A stretch of DNA of 64,000 nt from positions 1,612,001 to 1,676,000 of the forward strand of contig NC_073420.1 of the NCBI RefSeq assembly GCF_028641065.1. Reading direction: 5' to 3'. Shown one piece after another: positions 7,789 through 56,869 of the stretch (its first letter is position 1; every line of letters starts with the position of its first letter). The DNA is from Leucoraja erinacea (taxonomy: Eukaryota). A program made the position numbers and the translations under genes. Under the pieces are notes generated by a model. It was given only the letters and a program-made list of their open reading frames with translations. It ran no database searches and was not told the origin of the DNA.

Positions 7789-8537
7789 TTAGACGGTTGT
7801 CTCACACTCAGTGCTGTTGTAGGCTGAGAGAGGAGACTCTGCGAGCAGGGAGTTGTGCCTCGATGCCGGGCTGCCCCAGTCATGGTGGGGCTGCTGGTCC
7901 CCCGCACAGCACAGCCTGTGGGCGCAGCGCTGCCCGCACGCCAGCTCACACCCCAGCCCCCGGTCCTCGCCCACCTCCGGCTGCACCGTGACTGCCGCCA
8001 TCCCCTCCCGCCGGAGGAAGGCGGCCAGCCTCCCGGCCGTGCCCGCATCCCGGCACCGGGCATGGGCCATGGCCACCAGCCGCCTGCCAGCCAGCCGCCA
8101 CACATGCAACTCATGCACGGCCTCCACCCCGTCCTGTCTCAGCAGCAGCTCCCGCAGCCGCCGCACATCCAGCCCCCCGGGCACTGCTTGCAGCAGCAGC
8201 AGCGCCGACTCCTTCAGCCGGGGCCAGGACACCCACATGGCCCTGGAGACCACACCGAGACCCAGGGCCGGGTCCAGGTACAGCAACAGCCAGCAGGGCC
8301 AGGCACTCTCCTCCTCCCCCTTGCACTGTCCCACGGAACAGGAGGACCAGGCTGTGTAATGAGCCAACGCGTTCAACAGCAACAGAACCGAGATCGGGGC
8401 ATCCGCCAGCACCCGCGGTGAAGCCCTCTGACAATCCAGGCGCAGCTCTTCGCCCACGGCCCCGGGCTCCTCCAAATCCTCTCCCCACCAGCTCTTGCTT
8501 CGTCCCGGGACATCGGTCAGCGTCTCACTGAGAAGTT
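7789..8537 (-). CDS. SLC30A1/ZnT1-like cation diffusion facilitator, exon 2 (TM5-TM6 and C-terminal domain)
   Basis: TTGCAG acceptor at 8540-8538, phase 1, open to TAA at 7791-7789. Motifs PCWLLLYLDP, LKESALLLLQAVP, GVEAVHELHVWRLAG, TVQPE and CELACGQRCAHRLCC match ZnT1. Confidence 0.9.
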
Positions 8538-8599
8538 CTGCAACAACAGCAGAGCGGGGACGTCAGGCCTACCGTGTCTCCCGGTTGCGAACCATTTTC

Positions 8600-9440
8600 A
8601 TTCCCATTCTTCCCTTCCCTCCCGCACCACCTCCTCCCCGGGCACTTTCTCTTGCAACCGCAAGAGATGCTACACTTGTCGCTTTACCTCTTGGTTCTTG
8701 GTTTCTTGCACCTCCAAAATATTCCAAATGGAATTTAAACTGGAGGTGGTGGAGGGAGGGCTTAAGCCAGAAAGGGTTATTGGGAAGAAAGAGCTACTTT
8801 AAATTTAGTTGCATCTGGTTGGGTAACTATAGTTGGGTGGAGATTATTCCATGCTTTAATTGTAAGAACGAATTGCTGTATACATCCCCCCTTGACTCCA
8901 TTCAAGGACCCAAGCAGTCGTTACAGGTGCGACAGAGGTTCACCTGCACCTCCTCCAACCTTATCTATTGCATCTGCTACTCTAGATGTCAGCTGATCTA
9001 CATCGGTGAGACCAAACGTAGGCTTGGCGATCGTTTCACCGAACACCTTCGCTCGGTCCGCATTAACCAACCTGACCTCCCGGTGGCTCAGCAATTCAAC
9101 TCCCCCTCCGACCTCCGAATCCAACCTCTCTGTTCTGGGCCTCCTCCATGGCCAGAGTGAGCACTGCCGGAAATTGGAACAGCACCTCATATTCCGCTTG
9201 GGCAGTCTGCATCCTAGTGGCATAAACAGTGAATTCTCCAATTTCCGGTAGCCCTTGCTGTCTCCTCCCCTTCTCAGCTCTCCCTCAGCCCTCGGGCTCC
9301 TCATCTTCCTTTTTCCTTTCTTCTCCCCGCCCCCCACCCTCCATCAGTCTGAAGAAGGGTTTCGGCCCGAAACGTTGCCTATTTCCTTCGCTCCATAGAT
9401 GCTGCTGCACCCGCTGAGTTTCTCCAGCGTTTTGTCTACC
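8600..9440 (+). mobile_element. Penelope-like retroelement 3' fragment (GIY-YIG endonuclease plus hammerhead-like tail) in the SLC30A intron
   Basis: FTCTSSNLIYCICYSRCQLIYIGETKRRLGDRFTEHLRSV and RKLEQHLIFRLGSLHPSGINSEF; frameshifted and interrupted at about 8690-8880. CTGAAGA-stem-GAAACGTT at 9349-9376. Confidence 0.85.
9346..9380 (+). ncRNA. Minimal type-I hammerhead-ribozyme-like motif
   Basis: CTGAAGA, then GGGT-TTCG-GCCC hairpin, GAAA and CGTT, directly 3' of the GIY-YIG frame. Activity untested. Confidence 0.6.
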
Positions 9441-10353
9441 CACACTGACCTTTCTGTCCTGGGTCGCTTCCATTGCCAGAGTGAAGCAAACTGGAAGGAC
9501 TGCGTCTGGTATTCCACTTGGGTAGATTACAACCCAACAGAATGAACATGGAAAATAGACACAAAATGCTGGAGTGAAAGATAGGTTAGATGTGGAGAGG
9601 AGAGAGGGTAGACACAACATTCTGGAGTAACCCAGCAGGATAGGCAGCATTTCTGGAGAGAGGGAATGGGTGATGATTCGCGTCGAGACCCTTCTTCAGA
9701 TGTTTTCACTAATGGGAGAATCCAGGCCAGAAGCCTCAGAATAATAGGATGTACTTTTAAGAAGGAGATGAGGGGGGATTTCTTTAGTCAGAGGGTGGAA
9801 TCTATGGAATTCATTGCCACAGACGGCTGTGGAGGCCAAGGGGTTTTTTTAAAGGCGGAGATTGACAAATTCTTGATTAGTATATCAGGGGTTGAAGGGC
9901 CGAATGGCCTCCTCCTGCACCTGTTTTCTATGTTTTTAATCTGGAGGTGTGCGTTTTCACACTTCTGTATATCATGTCTGACGGGAGAGGGGAGAAGAGG
10001 GAGTGACCGGGGTGGGACTGGCCCTTGATTGTGCTGCTAGCCTTGCCGAGGCGGCGTGTGGTGTGACTTGTAACTCAACCAAACTCAACACAGAGAGTGG
10101 TGAGTCTGTGGAATTCTCTGCCTCAGGTGGAGGCCGGTTCTCTGGATGATTTCAAGAGAGAGCTAGATAGGGATCTTAAAGATAGCGGAGTCTGGGGATA
10201 TGGGGAGAAGGCAGGAACGGGGTACTGATTGTGGATGATCAGCCATGATCACATTGAATGGCGGTGCTGGCTCGAAGGGCCAAATGGCCTACTCCTGTTG
10301 TCTATTGTGTTAAAAGTAACAGCGATTAACCATTTCCCCCGGTAAAATCTGAC

Positions 10354-10834
10354 CTTTGTTTTCGCGCTTGCAACCCGTGTCTGCGGAGGGCCAGTCTTGT
10401 GCGTTGTTTGCTCCTCTGAAGATGTAGAAACTGCCCAGGTCGATCAGGAGACTGGTTAACCCGACCCCCACTAGGACCTCGGGGCGTCGGACTGGGCGAG
10501 GTTGCAACAAGCTCTCCACCGTTTTCCCCAGGGCGGCGAAGCAGAGGCCAGTGAGGAACACGCCTTGCACCAGGGCGCCCAGCGGCTCCACCCTCAGCCA
10601 GCCGAAGGTGTTCTTGGCCCGATTGTGGACCCGGCCGGCCCAGTTGAGCCTCCGAGACACCTGCAGCGTGCACAGACCCAGCAGCGTGGAGAAGGTGTGA
10701 AAGGACTGAGAGAGCAGGGCGAGGGAGCAGCACACTTTGCTCGCACTCAGTTGCAACAGCCAGACCGCCAGGGTAAATGCAAGCATCAGATGCAGAGCCA
10801 CGGCGCCCCAACACGAGCGGTGCCTCTTTTGCAT
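10354..10834 (-). CDS. SLC30A1/ZnT1-like, exon 1 (TM1-TM4)
   Basis: ATG at 10834; SLALLSQSFH and KNTFGWLRVEPLGALVQGVFLTGLCF match ZnT1. Donor AAG|GTCAGA is phase 1, matching exon 2. Joined CDS is 1230 nt, about 409 aa, with the 2-exon layout of SLC30A1. Confidence 0.88.
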
Positions 10835-11199
10835 TCTCCACTCTCTCCTTCGAAGTTTATGCACCCGGTGTCGGATGCACACGGGTCCAAAGCAAGCCCT
10901 CTCCGCACGAAACCAGGGCTCAGGACGGAATAAATAACAACACTTTCAAAACCAAATCACGGAATTCCTTCGTGCATTGAAAACTTCATCCTTTGCCTCC
11001 AAGGTTGTGATTTTCCGCCTCTGCTAGCTTGCAACTCCTACTCACGAGCCCAGATAATTAAAATATTTTAACCCATCTCCAACTCGCGGGAACTTTACGC
11101 TGTGTGTAACCTCGAAACAAAAACAGTGCAGTCTGAAGAATGGTGCCGACCTGCCCATGCTCTGCAGAAATGCTGCCTGACCAGTTGAGATTACTCCAG

Positions 11200-11475
11200 C
11201 ACTTCGTGTTTAAGAAAGAACTGCAGATGCTGGAACAATCGAAGGTAGACAGAAATGCTGGAGAAACTCAGCGGGTGAGGCAGCATCTATGGAGCGAAGG
11301 AATAGGTGACGTTTCGGGTCGAGACCCTTCTTCAGACTGCACTGTTTTTGTTGGCCAATAAACTTATTCAGTCTGAATAAGTCGACACCCGAAACGTCAC
11401 CTATTCCTTCGCACCATAGATGCTGCCTCACCCGCTGAGTTTCCCCAGCATTTTTGTCTATCACCACTTCGTGTG
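11200..11475. mobile_element. Non-autonomous Penelope-derived inverted-repeat mini-element
   Basis: Arms at about 11253-11340 and 11367-11460 are reverse complements, each with a hammerhead-like core; flanked by the direct repeat CACTTCGTGT. Confidence 0.65.
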
Positions 11476-11509
11476 TTTTTAAATATAAAACTGGACATCA
11501 CAGGAGTAG

Positions 11510-11736
11510 TTAGACAAAAATGCTGGAGAAACTCAGCGGGTGCAGCAGCATCTATGGAGCGAAGGCGAAACCCTTCTTCAGACTGATGCTGAAGTCTGAT
11601 GCGTCAGTCTGAAGAAGGGTTTCGGCCCGAAACGTCACCTATTTCCTTCGCTCCATAGATGCTGCTGCACCCGCTGAGTTTCTGCAGCATTTTTGTGTAC
11701 CTTCGATCTTCCAGCATCTGCAGTTCCTTCTTGAAC
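11510..11736. mobile_element. Non-autonomous Penelope-derived palindromic mini-element with 15-bp flanking duplication
   Basis: ACATCACAGGAGTAG at 11495-11509 and 11737-11751; inverted arms; intact CTGAAGA..GAAACGTC at 11609-11636. Confidence 0.75.
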
Positions 11737-16545: not shown

Positions 16546-16992
16546 TCATAAGTTCTTCCCGGGAAACTCCGACCACTCCGAGGCCTTCTCCTCGGAGTCG
16601 GGCTCTCCGGTGGTGTCCAGCTCAAAGTGTGGCGGGACCCTCTTGCGACTGGACGTGTTGTAGCGTTCGATGAACTCGACCCTGCCGTCCGTGTGCACGA
16701 TCTCCTTGAAGGTGGGCCGGTTGACCGCGTTGTACAGCTGCTCCTTGATCTTCCTGGCCAGCTCCAGGCTGCACTTGCGGGTGGGCCGGGAGGCGGTGTT
16801 GGTCAGGGCCTTGCCCACCACCGCGCTGAACACCATCTTGTACTCCTCCGGGGTGAGCCTGTGGATCTTCAGGGGCTGCTCCCCGAAGCCCTCGCACTTC
16901 CGCGGGATCCTGGTGTCTGAGCTACTCCTGCTCAGTCCATCAGCCTGCTCGCTACTAGGACCCGAGCTATTCCAGGCCAGGATTTCCTTCTC
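16546..16992 (-). CDS. C22orf31/DUF4662-like protein, last coding exon
   Basis: Phase-0 acceptor CCCATTGTTTCCTACGTGAAG|GAG. LKIHRLTPEEYKMVFSAVV..RKCSLELARKIKEQLYNAV resembles the C22orf31 block LTIHGL..YQALYHAVV..YSLELGKAIKQKLWEAL (from memory). GC-rich third codon positions; TGA at 16548-16546; ATTAAA on the minus strand at 15927-15922. Confidence 0.75.
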   Translation of the reverse strand, partial: EKEILAWNSSGPSSEQADGLSRSSSDTRIPRKCEGFGEQPLKIHRLTPEEYKMVFSAVVGKALTNTASRPTRKCSLELARKIKEQLYNAVNRPTFKEIVHTDGRVEFIERYNTSSRKRVPPHFELDTTGEPDSEEKASEWSEFPGKNL

Positions 16993-17454
16993 CTTCACGT
17001 AGGAAACAATGGGAGGTTTTAATATGGAGGAAGGAACTGCAGGTGCTGGTTTACACTGCAGGTAATCACATTTCACTGTGCCATCTGGCACATATGACAA
17101 ATAAATGTATCTTGTATCTTGTAGATAAGACACAAATTCTGGAGTAACACACTGGGACAGACAGCATCACCAGACAGAAAGAATGAATAACCTTTTGGCT
17201 CGAGACCCTTCCTGCTTTGATCAGTCGTGTTCACACCTTACCCTTCAATTGATCAATTTCTCTCCTGGGATAAATAAATAAAGTTCTATCATATTGTGTA
17301 GCTTTATCTTCCATCTCCCCTGACTCTCAGACTGAGGAAGGGTCTCGGCCCCAACTGGCACCGTTCTCCTTCTCTCCAGAGATGCTGCCTGTCCTGCTGA
17401 GTTAGTCAGGCACTTTGTGTCTATCTAGGAGGTTTTAATTGTTTCTTTCCAATG

Positions 17455-18312
17455 CTAAATAGACAATAGGTGCAGGAGTAGAGGCCATTCGGCCCTTCAA
17501 GCCAGCACCGTCATTCAATGTGATCATGGCTGATCATCCCCAATCAGTACCCCGTTCCTGCCTTTTCCCAATATCCCCTGACTCTTTAAGATCCCTATCC
17601 AGCTCTCTCTTGCAAGCATCCAGAGAACCTGCCTCCACCGCCCGCTGAGGCAGAGAATTCCACACACTCACAACTCTCTGTGAGAAAAACTGTTTCCTCG
17701 TCTCCATTCTAAATGGCTTACCCCTTATTCTTAAACTGTGGCCCCTGGTTCTAGACTCCCCCAACATCGGGAACATGTTTCCTGCCTCTAGCATGTCCAA
17801 ACCCTTAATAATCTTATATGTTTCAATAAGATTCCCTCTCCTCCTTCTAAACTCCAGAGTGTACAAGCCCAGCCGCTCCATTCTCTCCGCATATGACAGT
17901 CCCGCCATCCCGAGAATTAACCTTGTAAACCTACGCTGCTCTCCCCTCAATAGCGAGAATGTCCTTCCTCAAATTAGGGGACCAAAACTGCACACAATAC
18001 TCCAGGTCTGTTCTCATTAGGGCTCTGTACGACTGCAGAAGGACCTCTTTGCTCCTATATTCGATTCCTCTTGTTATAAAGGCCAACATGCCATTCGCAT
18101 TCTTCACTGCCTGCTGTAGCTGTATGCTTACTTTCATAGACTGGTGTACAAGATCCCGTTGTACTTCCCCTTTTCCCAACTTGGCGCCATTTAGATAGTA
18201 ATCTGCCGTCCTGTTTTTGCTACCAAAGTGGATAGCCTCACATATATCCGCATTAAACTCCATCTGCCATGCTTCTGCCCACTCCCCCAACCTGTCCAAG
18301 TCACCCTGCAGA
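17455..18312 (-). mobile_element. CR1-type LINE (HER1-like) 3' fragment
   Basis: RT C-terminal [35 protein letters not shown] and the conserved GGCTCGAAGGGCCGAATGGCCT-type tail. Confidence 0.9.
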
Positions 18313-18382
18313 AGGGGGAGGGGGGGGGTAAGGGGGGAACGCGGCTCCGCGGGACGGGGTGAGGAGGGGGCGATGTACTGAC

Positions 18383-18895
18383 CTTGCGTTGCCGTGACGA
18401 CTGAAGGTGCTCGGGCCCCTCGGCCTCTGTCTCTCTCTTGCCCACCGCCTGCCCTGCGACCTGTTGGATGCCCACCACCAGGTCCACCGCCTCGTCCACC
18501 TCGATCCTGGCCTGGGCCCGGGCGCGGGTCCTCTGGCGGGTGGAGCGCAGGGCGGCCGCCCCACAGCTCCAGCGGTGGGTGCTGAGCAGGCGTCGGGCAG
18601 AGCCGGTCCCTCTCACCCCCCCACCTCCCGCCCGCTTGGTCGCCCGGCGGCTGCAGTAGTTGTGCTCGATGGTGATGATGTCGGGCGCCGGGTAGTCGCC
18701 CGCCATCTGGGGCCGGGTCACGGGCAGAGGGTGGTCGCAGGGCTGACCCGTCAGCAGGCAGGTGGCGTGCCCGGCCTGCATCTGGCCGTGGTGGAAGAGG
18801 CCGGGGCTCGGGCACAGTAGGCTGGCTGGCGGCTCACTCGCCGCGTGCTGGAAACCCTCATGGACACCTAGGGAGCCGATGGATTCGGAAATCAT
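18383..18895 (-). CDS. C22orf31/DUF4662-like protein, upstream coding exon
   Basis: Acceptor TTTTCTTCCAG| at 18911, AAGATG start at 18895, open 171 codons, donor AAG|GTCAGT in phase 0 matching the next exon. Total about 319 aa. Confidence 0.7.
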
Positions 18896-20369
18896 CTTGG
18901 TCCCAAATACCTGGAAGAAAAATCGCACCTGCGTAAGTCCAAACACCTCTCAGTGCTAGAGACCCTGGTTCAATTCAGATTCAGATTCAATTTTAATTGT
19001 CATTGTCAGTGTACAGTACAGAGACAACAAAATGCATTTAGCATCTCCCTTGAAGAGCGACATAGCAAACGATTTGAATAAAAAATAATAAGTGTCCGGT
19101 GATTGGCAGTCACTGAGGTACGTTGTTGAGTATGTCCTGACCGTGTGTGTGTATCTCTGTCTGTCTTTCTGGCTGTGTGTTTGCACGTTTTCCCTGTGAC
19201 TGCGTGACTGCCTGTGACTGCGTGGGTTTCCTCCGGATGCTCCGGTTTCCTCCCACGTCCCAAAGACGTGCGGGTTTGTAGGTCAATTGGCCCTCTGTAA
19301 AATCACCCCTTGTGTGTGGGAAGCTGATGAGAAAGTGGGAAAATACGGAAACATATAAAAATTCTTAAGGGATTGGACAGGCTGGATGCAGGAAAAATGT
19401 TCTGCATGGTGGGGGAGTCCAGAACCAGGGGTCACAGTTTAAGAATAAGGGGTAGGTAGGCCATTTAGGACTGATATGAGGAAAAACTTTTTCAGCCAGA
19501 GATTTGTTAATCTGTGCAATTCTCTGCCACAGAAGGCAGTAGAGGCCAATTCACTGGATGTTTTCAAGAGAGAGTTGGATATAGCTCTTAGGGCTAAAGG
19601 AATCAAGGGATATGGGGAGAAATCAGGAACAGGCTACTGATTGTGGATGATCAGCCATGATCATGTTGAATGGTGGTGCTGGCTCGAAGGGCCAAATGGC
19701 CTACTCCTGCACCTATTTTCTATGTTTCTAACTAGTGTGAACGGGTGACCGATGGTCAGCGTGGACTCTTTGGGCTGAAGGGCCTGTTTCCATGCTCTAA
19801 ATCTCTAAATCAAACTCTGTGGTGACCAGGGCTCACAGGCAAACAGTTCCAAAAATAGATGGCGTATTGACTGCTATTAACTACTAGAAGAGGTCGACGA
19901 TCCCGAGAGATAGGAGAGCATTATAAATAAAAAAGTGCTGGAGTAACTCAGCGGGTCAGGCAGCATGTCTGGAGAATGTGGGCAGGTGACGTTTCGAGTC
20001 GGGACCCTTCTTCAGACTCTGAAGAAAGATCCCGACCTGAAACGTCACCTAGTTTCATTTTGTTCATCATTGTCATGTGTACCGAGGTACGGTGATACGC
20101 TTTGTTATTGCATCCTATCCAGTCAACGAAAAGACTATACATGATTACAATCAATCCATCGAGTTTGCAGATACAGGATAAAGGGAATAACGTTTAGTGC
20201 AGGGTAAAGTCCGATTAAAGAGCCTGAGAGTCTCCAATGAGGTAGATGGTAGGTCAGGGCTGCTCTCTAGTCGATGAGAGGACTGTTCAGTGGCCTGATG
20301 ACAGCTGGGAAGAAACTGTCCCTGAATCTGGAGGTGTGCATTCTCAAACTTCTGTACGTCTTGCCTGAT

Positions 20370-56155: not shown

Positions 56156-56226
56156 CACACCCTCACACACTAACACACCCTCACACACTAACCCACACCC
56201 ACACATAGACACCCACACCCACTGAC

Positions 56227-56434
56227 CCAGGGCGAACACCATCTGCCCCACGGTTCCCATCCCGGGCGGGGAATGGCGCTGCGTTGCCCCGCGGGCCGAG
56301 GCGTAGATCCAGGCCGCCGCCGCCATCAGGCCGCCCCCGCACACCACCCGGCAGCCCCAGCATTCCCGCAGCATCTGCCGCCGCCGCCCGCCCGGCCGTG
56401 GGGCGGGGAGAGGAGGGGGAGCAGGAGCCGCCAT
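56227..56434 (-). CDS. DMAC1: DMAC1 (complex I distal membrane-arm assembly factor) exon 1
   Basis: MAAPAPP..ECWGCRVVCGGGLMAAAAWIYASAR..PPGMGTVGQMVFAL; CWxCR motif; donor G|GTCAGT, phase 1. Total 90 aa. Confidence 0.85.
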
Positions 56435-56869
56435 CAACCCTCCCTCGGCCTCGGCCTCGACCCGGACCCTGCGGACGCGACGCGACGGACCGCCGCCACC
56501 CAGAGTGTGCCCCGTCCTAAACCTTCCCCTGGACCCCCGGCCGCCGCGCCATCGTTCCCCCGGCCGCACCACATGGAACTGAACCATCAATCACCGACCC
56601 TGACTTCAAACTTCATTTCATTCTATTTGAAATATCATTTTATATTTTATTTTAATATTATTAATAATAATAACATATTTTTAACATTGATATTTTTATT
56701 ATAATATGTAATATAATATAACATAATATACTAAAATATAAATATATATACATACATATATTAAATTTTTATTGTGTTTTTGTGTGTGTTCTTATAATTG
56801 TACCACTGCTGACATATTCATTTCACTTGCACTTATGTGCAATGTGACAAATAAACTGTATTGTATTGG

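Follow-up and report, generated by a model that had tools for sequence, protein, structure and literature searches.

A transcribed ZnT1 paralog in Leucoraja erinacea that has lost the canonical transport site, a likely ancient duplicate and candidate non-transporting partner

We analysed a gene on the minus strand of a 64,000-nucleotide stretch of the Leucoraja erinacea genome (contig NC_073420.1, positions 1,612,001 to 1,676,000; hereafter the window, whose own numbering is used below). With a probability of roughly 55%, we read it as a transcribed paralog of the zinc exporter ZnT1 that lacks D47 and H251 (human ZnT1 numbering), an old duplicate acting as a non-transporting partner or scaffold. 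The initial annotation had listed a pseudo-transporter or a partner of ZnT1 among its suggestions, and this agrees best with the evidence: the transport site is lost, and the cytosolic dimer domain, its zinc site and the tail are kept.

Results

Gene structure, identity and expression

The gene occupies 7789..10834 and consists of two exons holding 409 codons and a TAA stop, with no internal stops (Table 1). Its exons, its donor (AAG/GTCAG) and acceptor (TTGCAG/AA), and the letter-for-letter identity of the 409-residue product to RefSeq protein XP_055520763.1 ("SLC30A1-like", Leucoraja erinacea) all bear out the uninterrupted two-exon frame first noticed here. The gene is thus already annotated, but only by likeness. 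The product has the features of the CDF/SLC30 family, a six-helix Cation_efflux domain and a cytosolic ZT_dimer domain, by Pfam, predicted fold and Foldseek; both Pfam matches exceed the cut-off, with ZT_dimer found in the exon 2 product at E 5e-06. An AlphaFold2 model from 126 aligned rows (mean pLDDT 78.8) predicts six long helices and a cytosolic sheet. Searched with this predicted model, Foldseek returned ZnT1 structures as its first nine matches (top 8xmf, E 6e-20, 35% identity), and human ZnT1 was also the best PDB match by sequence. Features of the ZnT1 lineage, an extracellular Cys loop and a C-terminal class I PDZ motif, are present as well.

Table 1. Features of the paralog in window coordinates; residues are matched to human ZnT1 numbering unless ZnT10 is named
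Feature	Position	Strand	Details and basis
Coding exon 1 (TM1-TM4, loop start)	10354..10834	-	481 nt; Pfam Cation_efflux E 1.4e-16; stranded reads in runs X13 and X16
Intron, GT-AG, phase 1, repeat-filled	8538..10353	-	Sequence of window
Coding exon 2 (loop end, TM5, short extracellular loop, TM6, cytosolic domain, tail, TAA)	7789..8537	-	749 nt
Gln28, replaces TM1 E25	10751..10753	-	Aligned to human ZnT1 numbering
Gln43, replaces D40 (Mn ligand in ZnT10)	10706..10708	-	Alignment
His46 = H43, kept in 8/8 elasmobranchs	10697..10699	-	Alignment
Thr50, replaces D47; Asp gone in 8/8 elasmobranchs	10685..10687	-	Alignment
Asp132, at ZnT10 N127 position; Asp in 6/6 skates and rays, Asn in 2/2 sharks	10439..10441	-	Alignment
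Arg202, replaces H251; variable among orthologs	8413..8415	-	Alignment
Asp206 = D255; kept in 6/6 skates and rays, gone in 2/2 sharks	8401..8403	-	Alignment
Extracellular Cys loop, about half ZnT1 length, 3 Cys instead of 5	8281..8352	-	Alignment
Cytosolic Zn site: His305, His319, Glu348, Cys357 (= H370, H387, E420, C433) and Cys cluster to Cys371	7906..8106	-	Alignment
C-terminal ETTV, class I PDZ-type motif	7792..7803	-	Sequence; cf. ZnT1 ESSL

The gene is transcribed at a low level. RNA reads came from three raw runs (X9, X13 and X16) and one contig set (X1), from an organism that is near-identical over the exons and perhaps not the window's own species. Stranded RNA covered both exons in two of the three raw runs, with mean depth per exon bin of 2-13 in X13 and 1-6 in X16, against 0 to 0.11 in a bin upstream of the gene (10956-11082); X9 had almost no reads over the exons. 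First mates lay on the plus strand only, which in most stranded libraries indicates RNA of the opposite strand, here the minus strand of the gene. One X1 contig ends its match exactly at the acceptor, 8537, and carries 22 more letters beyond it. Repeats dominated the joints listed (15 of 989), and the 10354/8537 junction does not appear there. Four motifs resembling metal-response elements (MREs) occur in the 1.4 kb upstream of the start codon (10860-11672, minus strand; 1.1 expected, p 0.04), two of them within 50 bp; the excess is marginal and one of several things looked at.

Loss of the membrane transport site

The codons that the initial annotation had singled out read as it had stated (CAC at 10699-10697, ACG at 10687-10685, CGG at 8415-8413), and both of its registers against human ZnT1 hold, with TM2 reading SQSFHTFST for SDSFHMLSD and TM5 reading RVLAD for HVLGD. 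The HD/HD site of functional ZnT1 (H43, D47, H251, D255) accordingly reads H, T, R, D in the window gene. We reject an assembly error as the source of these letters, since the Amblyraja and Rhinoraja proteins carry the identical Q/H/T and R/D residues; five Logan fragments (two over exon 1 and three over exon 2, perhaps not independent samples) also match.

Published mutants indicate what these replacements would mean. Zinc efflux of human ZnT1 is reported to be lost in D47A/D255A, D47N/D255N and H43A/H251A and retained in H370A/H387A and H408A/H413A, so that only the membrane site is critical (PMC11051671). Outward-facing ZnT1 holds zinc by D47, H251 and D255 (PMC11549101), and two of these three are gone here. 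Our literature coverage yielded no transport test of a single D47T mutant. The sequence comparison strongly suggests that the protein is transport-dead, and we hold it highly likely that it is not a normal zinc exporter. The TM4-TM5 loop, as had been claimed, lacks a His-rich tract, with no His in 55 residues compared with 6-9 in three ZnT1 proteins. The distal change from HNHGIH to RREGMA is likewise real, but it says little, as the retained efflux of H408A/H413A concerns this very segment.

The site was then compared across eight elasmobranch orthologs (Leucoraja, Amblyraja, Rhinoraja, Pristis, Mobula, Narcine, Heptranchias and Scyliorhinus). The D47 position reads T,T,T,T,A,T,G,A, the D40 position Q,Q,Q,H,R,H,H,L, the H251 position R,R,R,H,H,R,Q,H, and the D255 position D in six and then V,G in the sharks. 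These positions are invariant in 97-99 of the 99 canonical rows among the 126 aligned, which were picked on H43, D47, H251 and D255 and are therefore invariant at those four by construction. Loss of the canonical transport site thus stands, with D47 and H251 replaced in the window gene and D47 gone in all eight orthologs. The suggestion that the Arg change might be common to sharks and rays does not hold; the losses held in common are those of D47 and D40. The H-T/R-D arrangement is the skate version only, and because the replacements differ by species they make a single new substrate site less plausible: selection for another ion would be expected to fix the rebuilt residues again, and residues that drift look unused.

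Regions that remain conserved

Conservation of the paralog is concentrated outside the moving helices. Positions conserved across the family are kept at 15/17 in the cytosolic domain and 21/48 in the membrane domain (36/65 in total; Fisher p 0.0017), a position counting as kept if five or more of the six non-redundant elasmobranch rows carry it. Conservation within the paralog tracks that of the family (rho 0.39; invariant at 29/65 versus 36/208 positions, p 2e-5). By region, the conservation ratio is 0.84-0.95 in TM6, the TM2-TM3 linker and the cytosolic domain and 0.68-0.73 in TM1, TM2 and TM5; TM3, which is also part of the dimer face, has a ratio of 0.74, no better than the moving helices.

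At the cytosolic zinc site, H370, H387, E420, C433 and C437, together with Q418, are kept in 8/8 elasmobranchs, and T416 in 7/8; the persistence of the Cys cluster, to Cys371, is as first described. This site has been defined in ZnT1, where zinc binding changes the cytosolic dimer (PMC12290082). The cytosolic site is not universal, as H370 and some of the Cys cluster are missing in lizards; the snake model lacks TM5. At the C-terminus, a class I PDZ-type end is found in seven of the eight elasmobranchs (the Mobula model has a different tail) and in five of six lungfish and reptile proteins, and a shark, lizards and a turtle all end in EYETTV, compared with ESSL or ESAV in ZnT1. ZnT1 has been described as the only mammalian ZnT with a class I PDZ motif (PMC3975337). 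The extracellular loop, which makes ZnT1 dimer contacts and joins the protomers (PMC11051671), has its full five Cys in the shark, lungfish, lizard and turtle copies and is halved in skates and rays.

Reading frames are open in all eight elasmobranch models, at identities down to 44-49%, and 3.5% of single-base changes in the coding sequence of the skate gene would make a stop; the databases used can show only annotated, intact copies. Read variants listed in exon 1 (one silent, two replacement) are too few for dN/dS. The paralog branch is several times longer than that of ZnT1, which indicates relaxed constraint. Overall, intact orthologs, patterned conservation and transcription speak against the decaying pseudogene that the initial annotation had allowed for, and the gene is very likely under selection.

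Phylogeny and age

Placed in trees with SLC30A1 and SLC30A10, as had been proposed, the window gene nests in the ZnT1 line, apart from the ZnT10 clade (support 100/99 and 100/100 in two trees). The eight elasmobranch proteins form a clade with support of 100/98 in an LG tree of 45 chosen rows, and seven of them one of 99/97 in a mixture-model tree that uses 34 of those rows, with 11 dropped. A full-library profile search, of which the best 150 of 421 matches at E 1e-30 were taken and 20 looked up by name, placed site-dead "ZnT1-like" proteins of a lungfish, a turtle, lacertid lizards, a monitor lizard and a pit viper among the matches listed. These lungfish and reptile copies join the elasmobranch clade (97/86 in the LG tree; 91/78 and 80/72 in the mixture model), a grouping whose support is only moderate given long branches and skewed composition. 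AU tests reject a duplicate restricted to cartilaginous fishes (p 0.0005) and one restricted to reptiles (p 0.006), although the tested groups were named after the first tree and the p values are somewhat generous. We therefore discard shark-only and reptile-only duplicates. The EYETTV end common to shark, lizards and turtle is a further sign of common ancient origin. By these comparisons the gene is likely an ancient duplicate that sharks also carry, as lungfish and reptiles probably do, and its age probably exceeds the split of sharks from bony fishes.

A second clade of site-dead ZnT1-like proteins (100/100) comprises sequences from catshark, white shark, coelacanth, lungfish, newt, paddlefish and bichir (P0015, P0140, P0065, P0101, P0110, P0121 and P0135). 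D47 is lost in 7/7 and D255 in 5/6 aligned; H370, H387, E420, E25 and D40 are kept, the extracellular loop is short and none of the seven has a class I PDZ end. With the catshark member as query, no separate copy of this clade was found in the present genome. Two further ZnT1-like proteins with altered sites, P0044 (bichir) and P0028 (arapaima), have an unsettled place in the tree. A carp study names four genes in its legend on slc30a1 synteny, nek2, rd3, rhag and kcns3 (PMC4281218 Fig. 5); the last two are probably neighbours of slc30a1b. Single zebrafish slc30a1b knockouts are reported to be normal and the double knockout severe (PMC8706747).

Genomic neighbourhood and mode of duplication

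Two related genes lie elsewhere in the genome. A normal ZnT1 with its HD/HD site is at C8:58.54 Mb, close to a B56 gene and about 80 kb from RD3, and a ZnT10 with D40, D47, N127, D248 and S252 in place is at C8:52.92 Mb. With both found on C8, we reject the window gene as the ortholog of either. Proximity of slc30a1 to rd3 is a conserved synteny (PMC4281218), and RD3 was not found on C44, the contig of the window gene. The neighbours there are FLRT, a RILP-like gene, STIP1, FERMT3, a spliced histone H3, a UBX gene, DPP3 and Pellino. We take the FLRT/STIP1/FERMT3/DPP3/Pellino neighbourhood to match human 11q13, presumably a block paralogous to 1q32-41, the home of SLC30A1. Searches for markers of the paralogous block (B56, ELM2, KA1 and RD3) returned none on C44. 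A fifth B56 (PPP2R5) gene lies on C1369, which is possibly from the same small chromosome as C44.

An intron of the same phase 1 in the same TM4-TM5 loop can be placed in the genome's own ZnT1, its splice sites being the best candidates. This common intron makes a processed retrocopy unlikely and points to duplication at the DNA level.

Several other loci were recorded along the way. The RILP-like gene between FLRT and STIP1 is a single ORF, and an fn3-domain gene lies between FERMT3 and histone H3 on C44 (RILP-like, L037:4240-4911; fn3, L047:5941-6597). The genome's ZnT10 (L013, L021 and L027; C8:52.92-52.95 Mb) has Ser at N43 and Gln at H244 and seems to lack part of the TM2-TM3 linker; a second, partial copy of its exon 1 lies about 20 kb on, and its cytosolic-domain motif was not found in the 30 kb examined. 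Within the window, the first coding sequence found on the upstream side of the paralog is a gene of probably two exons at 16546-18949 (minus strand), whose second ORF matches DUF4662 in Pfam. A short ORF beside an N run at 56181-56516 (minus strand) has no Pfam match and resembles DMAC1.

Discussion

The closest known system is ZnT1 itself, which agrees with the window gene in best sequence and fold match, two exons, loop intron, Cys loop, cytosolic site and PDZ-type tail. Besides D47 and H251, the window gene lacks the D40, E25, TM3 Asn and His-rich loop of ZnT1, has a halved extracellular loop and sits among other neighbours on another contig. In its putative mode of action, it resembles ZnT6 (SLC30A6), which serves ZnT5 as an auxiliary protomer, is short of two ligands and is thought not to transport (PMC7949119): both are CDF proteins without two membrane ligands that keep the cytosolic dimer domain. 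They differ in that the window gene comes from the plasma-membrane ZnT1 branch and its replacements vary by species. ZnT10, a sister family, also has a non-HDHD site, and equivalents of its D248 and S252 are kept in skates and rays; the window gene has none of D40, D47 and E25 and falls outside that clade. The second site-dead lineage has also lost D47 and mostly D255, but is a separate clade that keeps E25 and D40 and has no PDZ end.

As a non-transporting partner or scaffold, the protein would use its cytosolic domain to dimerise and bind zinc, and its tail may still dock on PDZ scaffolds. It would pair with ZnT1, as ZnT6 does with ZnT5, or with itself, and the pairing would tune the location or output of ZnT1 or carry its non-transport interactions. 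ZnT1 is reported to heterodimerise with ZnT2-4 and to bind the L-type channel beta subunit, Raf-1 and EVER proteins (PMC7949119). That ZnT1 is the partner is possible, though we would not assume it.

We weighed three other accounts against a partner or scaffold. A carrier re-tooled in skates and rays for Mn, Ca or another oxygen-liking ion, with a ZnT10-type site rebuilt as Q43/D132/D206/S210 and the carboxylate moved from TM2 to TM4, draws on the fact that D132, D206, S210 and H46 are fixed in 6/6 skates and rays and could still bind an ion. The equivalent positions form the Mn site of SLC30A10 (D40/N127/D248/S252), which tolerates H244A (PMC12480533). The same work reports that D40 and D47 are each required, with D47A abolishing transport, and that E25 helps; all three are gone here, the site reading Q/D/D/S with Thr at 47. 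Position 43 moreover varies among Q, H and R, both sharks lack D206 and D132, and the genome has its own ZnT10 with the site in place. The carrier with a new substrate that the initial annotation had raised is disfavoured by site residues that are not fixed across species, and we think it unlikely. Its supporting remark that an H-to-N change makes ZnT10 a Mn exporter was too simple, as N43A and N43H leave SLC30A10 Mn transport intact (PMC12480533).

Slow decay of a weakly selected duplicate that now does little would account for the long branches, the low and patchy expression, the erosion in lizards and the snake and the shortened loop in rays, and mammals carry only ten SLC30 genes (PMC7926707). 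It sits poorly with frames that have stayed open in 8/8 elasmobranchs at such divergence despite the share of stop-making changes, with conservation patterned by domain and with the identical EYETTV end, and we judge it improbable. Least probable, in our view, is a homodimer that works on its own as a zinc sensor or buffer, binding cytosolic zinc and signalling via its tail independently of ZnT1, possibly under induction by zinc. The site kept throughout the elasmobranchs, the dimer change on zinc binding in ZnT1 (PMC12290082) and the weak excess of MRE-like motifs would suit such a protein; the loss of the site in lizards and the marginal size of that excess count against it.

A broader version of the partner reading, which we advance only tentatively, is that jawed vertebrates once had two extra genes of the ZnT1 line without a transport site and that the window gene is a regulatory subunit setting zinc export. 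In a heterodimer with ZnT1, its zinc-binding cytosolic domain and PDZ tail would set where and how much zinc leaves. If true, this would be a natural split of ZnT1 scaffolding from pumping, lost in mammals.

The literature covered, which excludes subscription journals and supplements, yielded no description of this paralog; "ZnT11" there denotes TMEM163. The member count of the vertebrate SLC30 family comes from mammals, in which ZnT6 has been described as lacking the site. Our results suggest that the ZnT1 line has at least one further site-dead member, and probably a second, that went unnoticed under the bare database label "SLC30A1-like", and "zinc transporter 1-like" labels in sharks, lungfish and reptiles should not be read as working exporters. 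A transport-dead twin of ZnT1, retained over hundreds of millions of years, would offer a direct way to ask which of the non-export roles of ZnT1 need transport.
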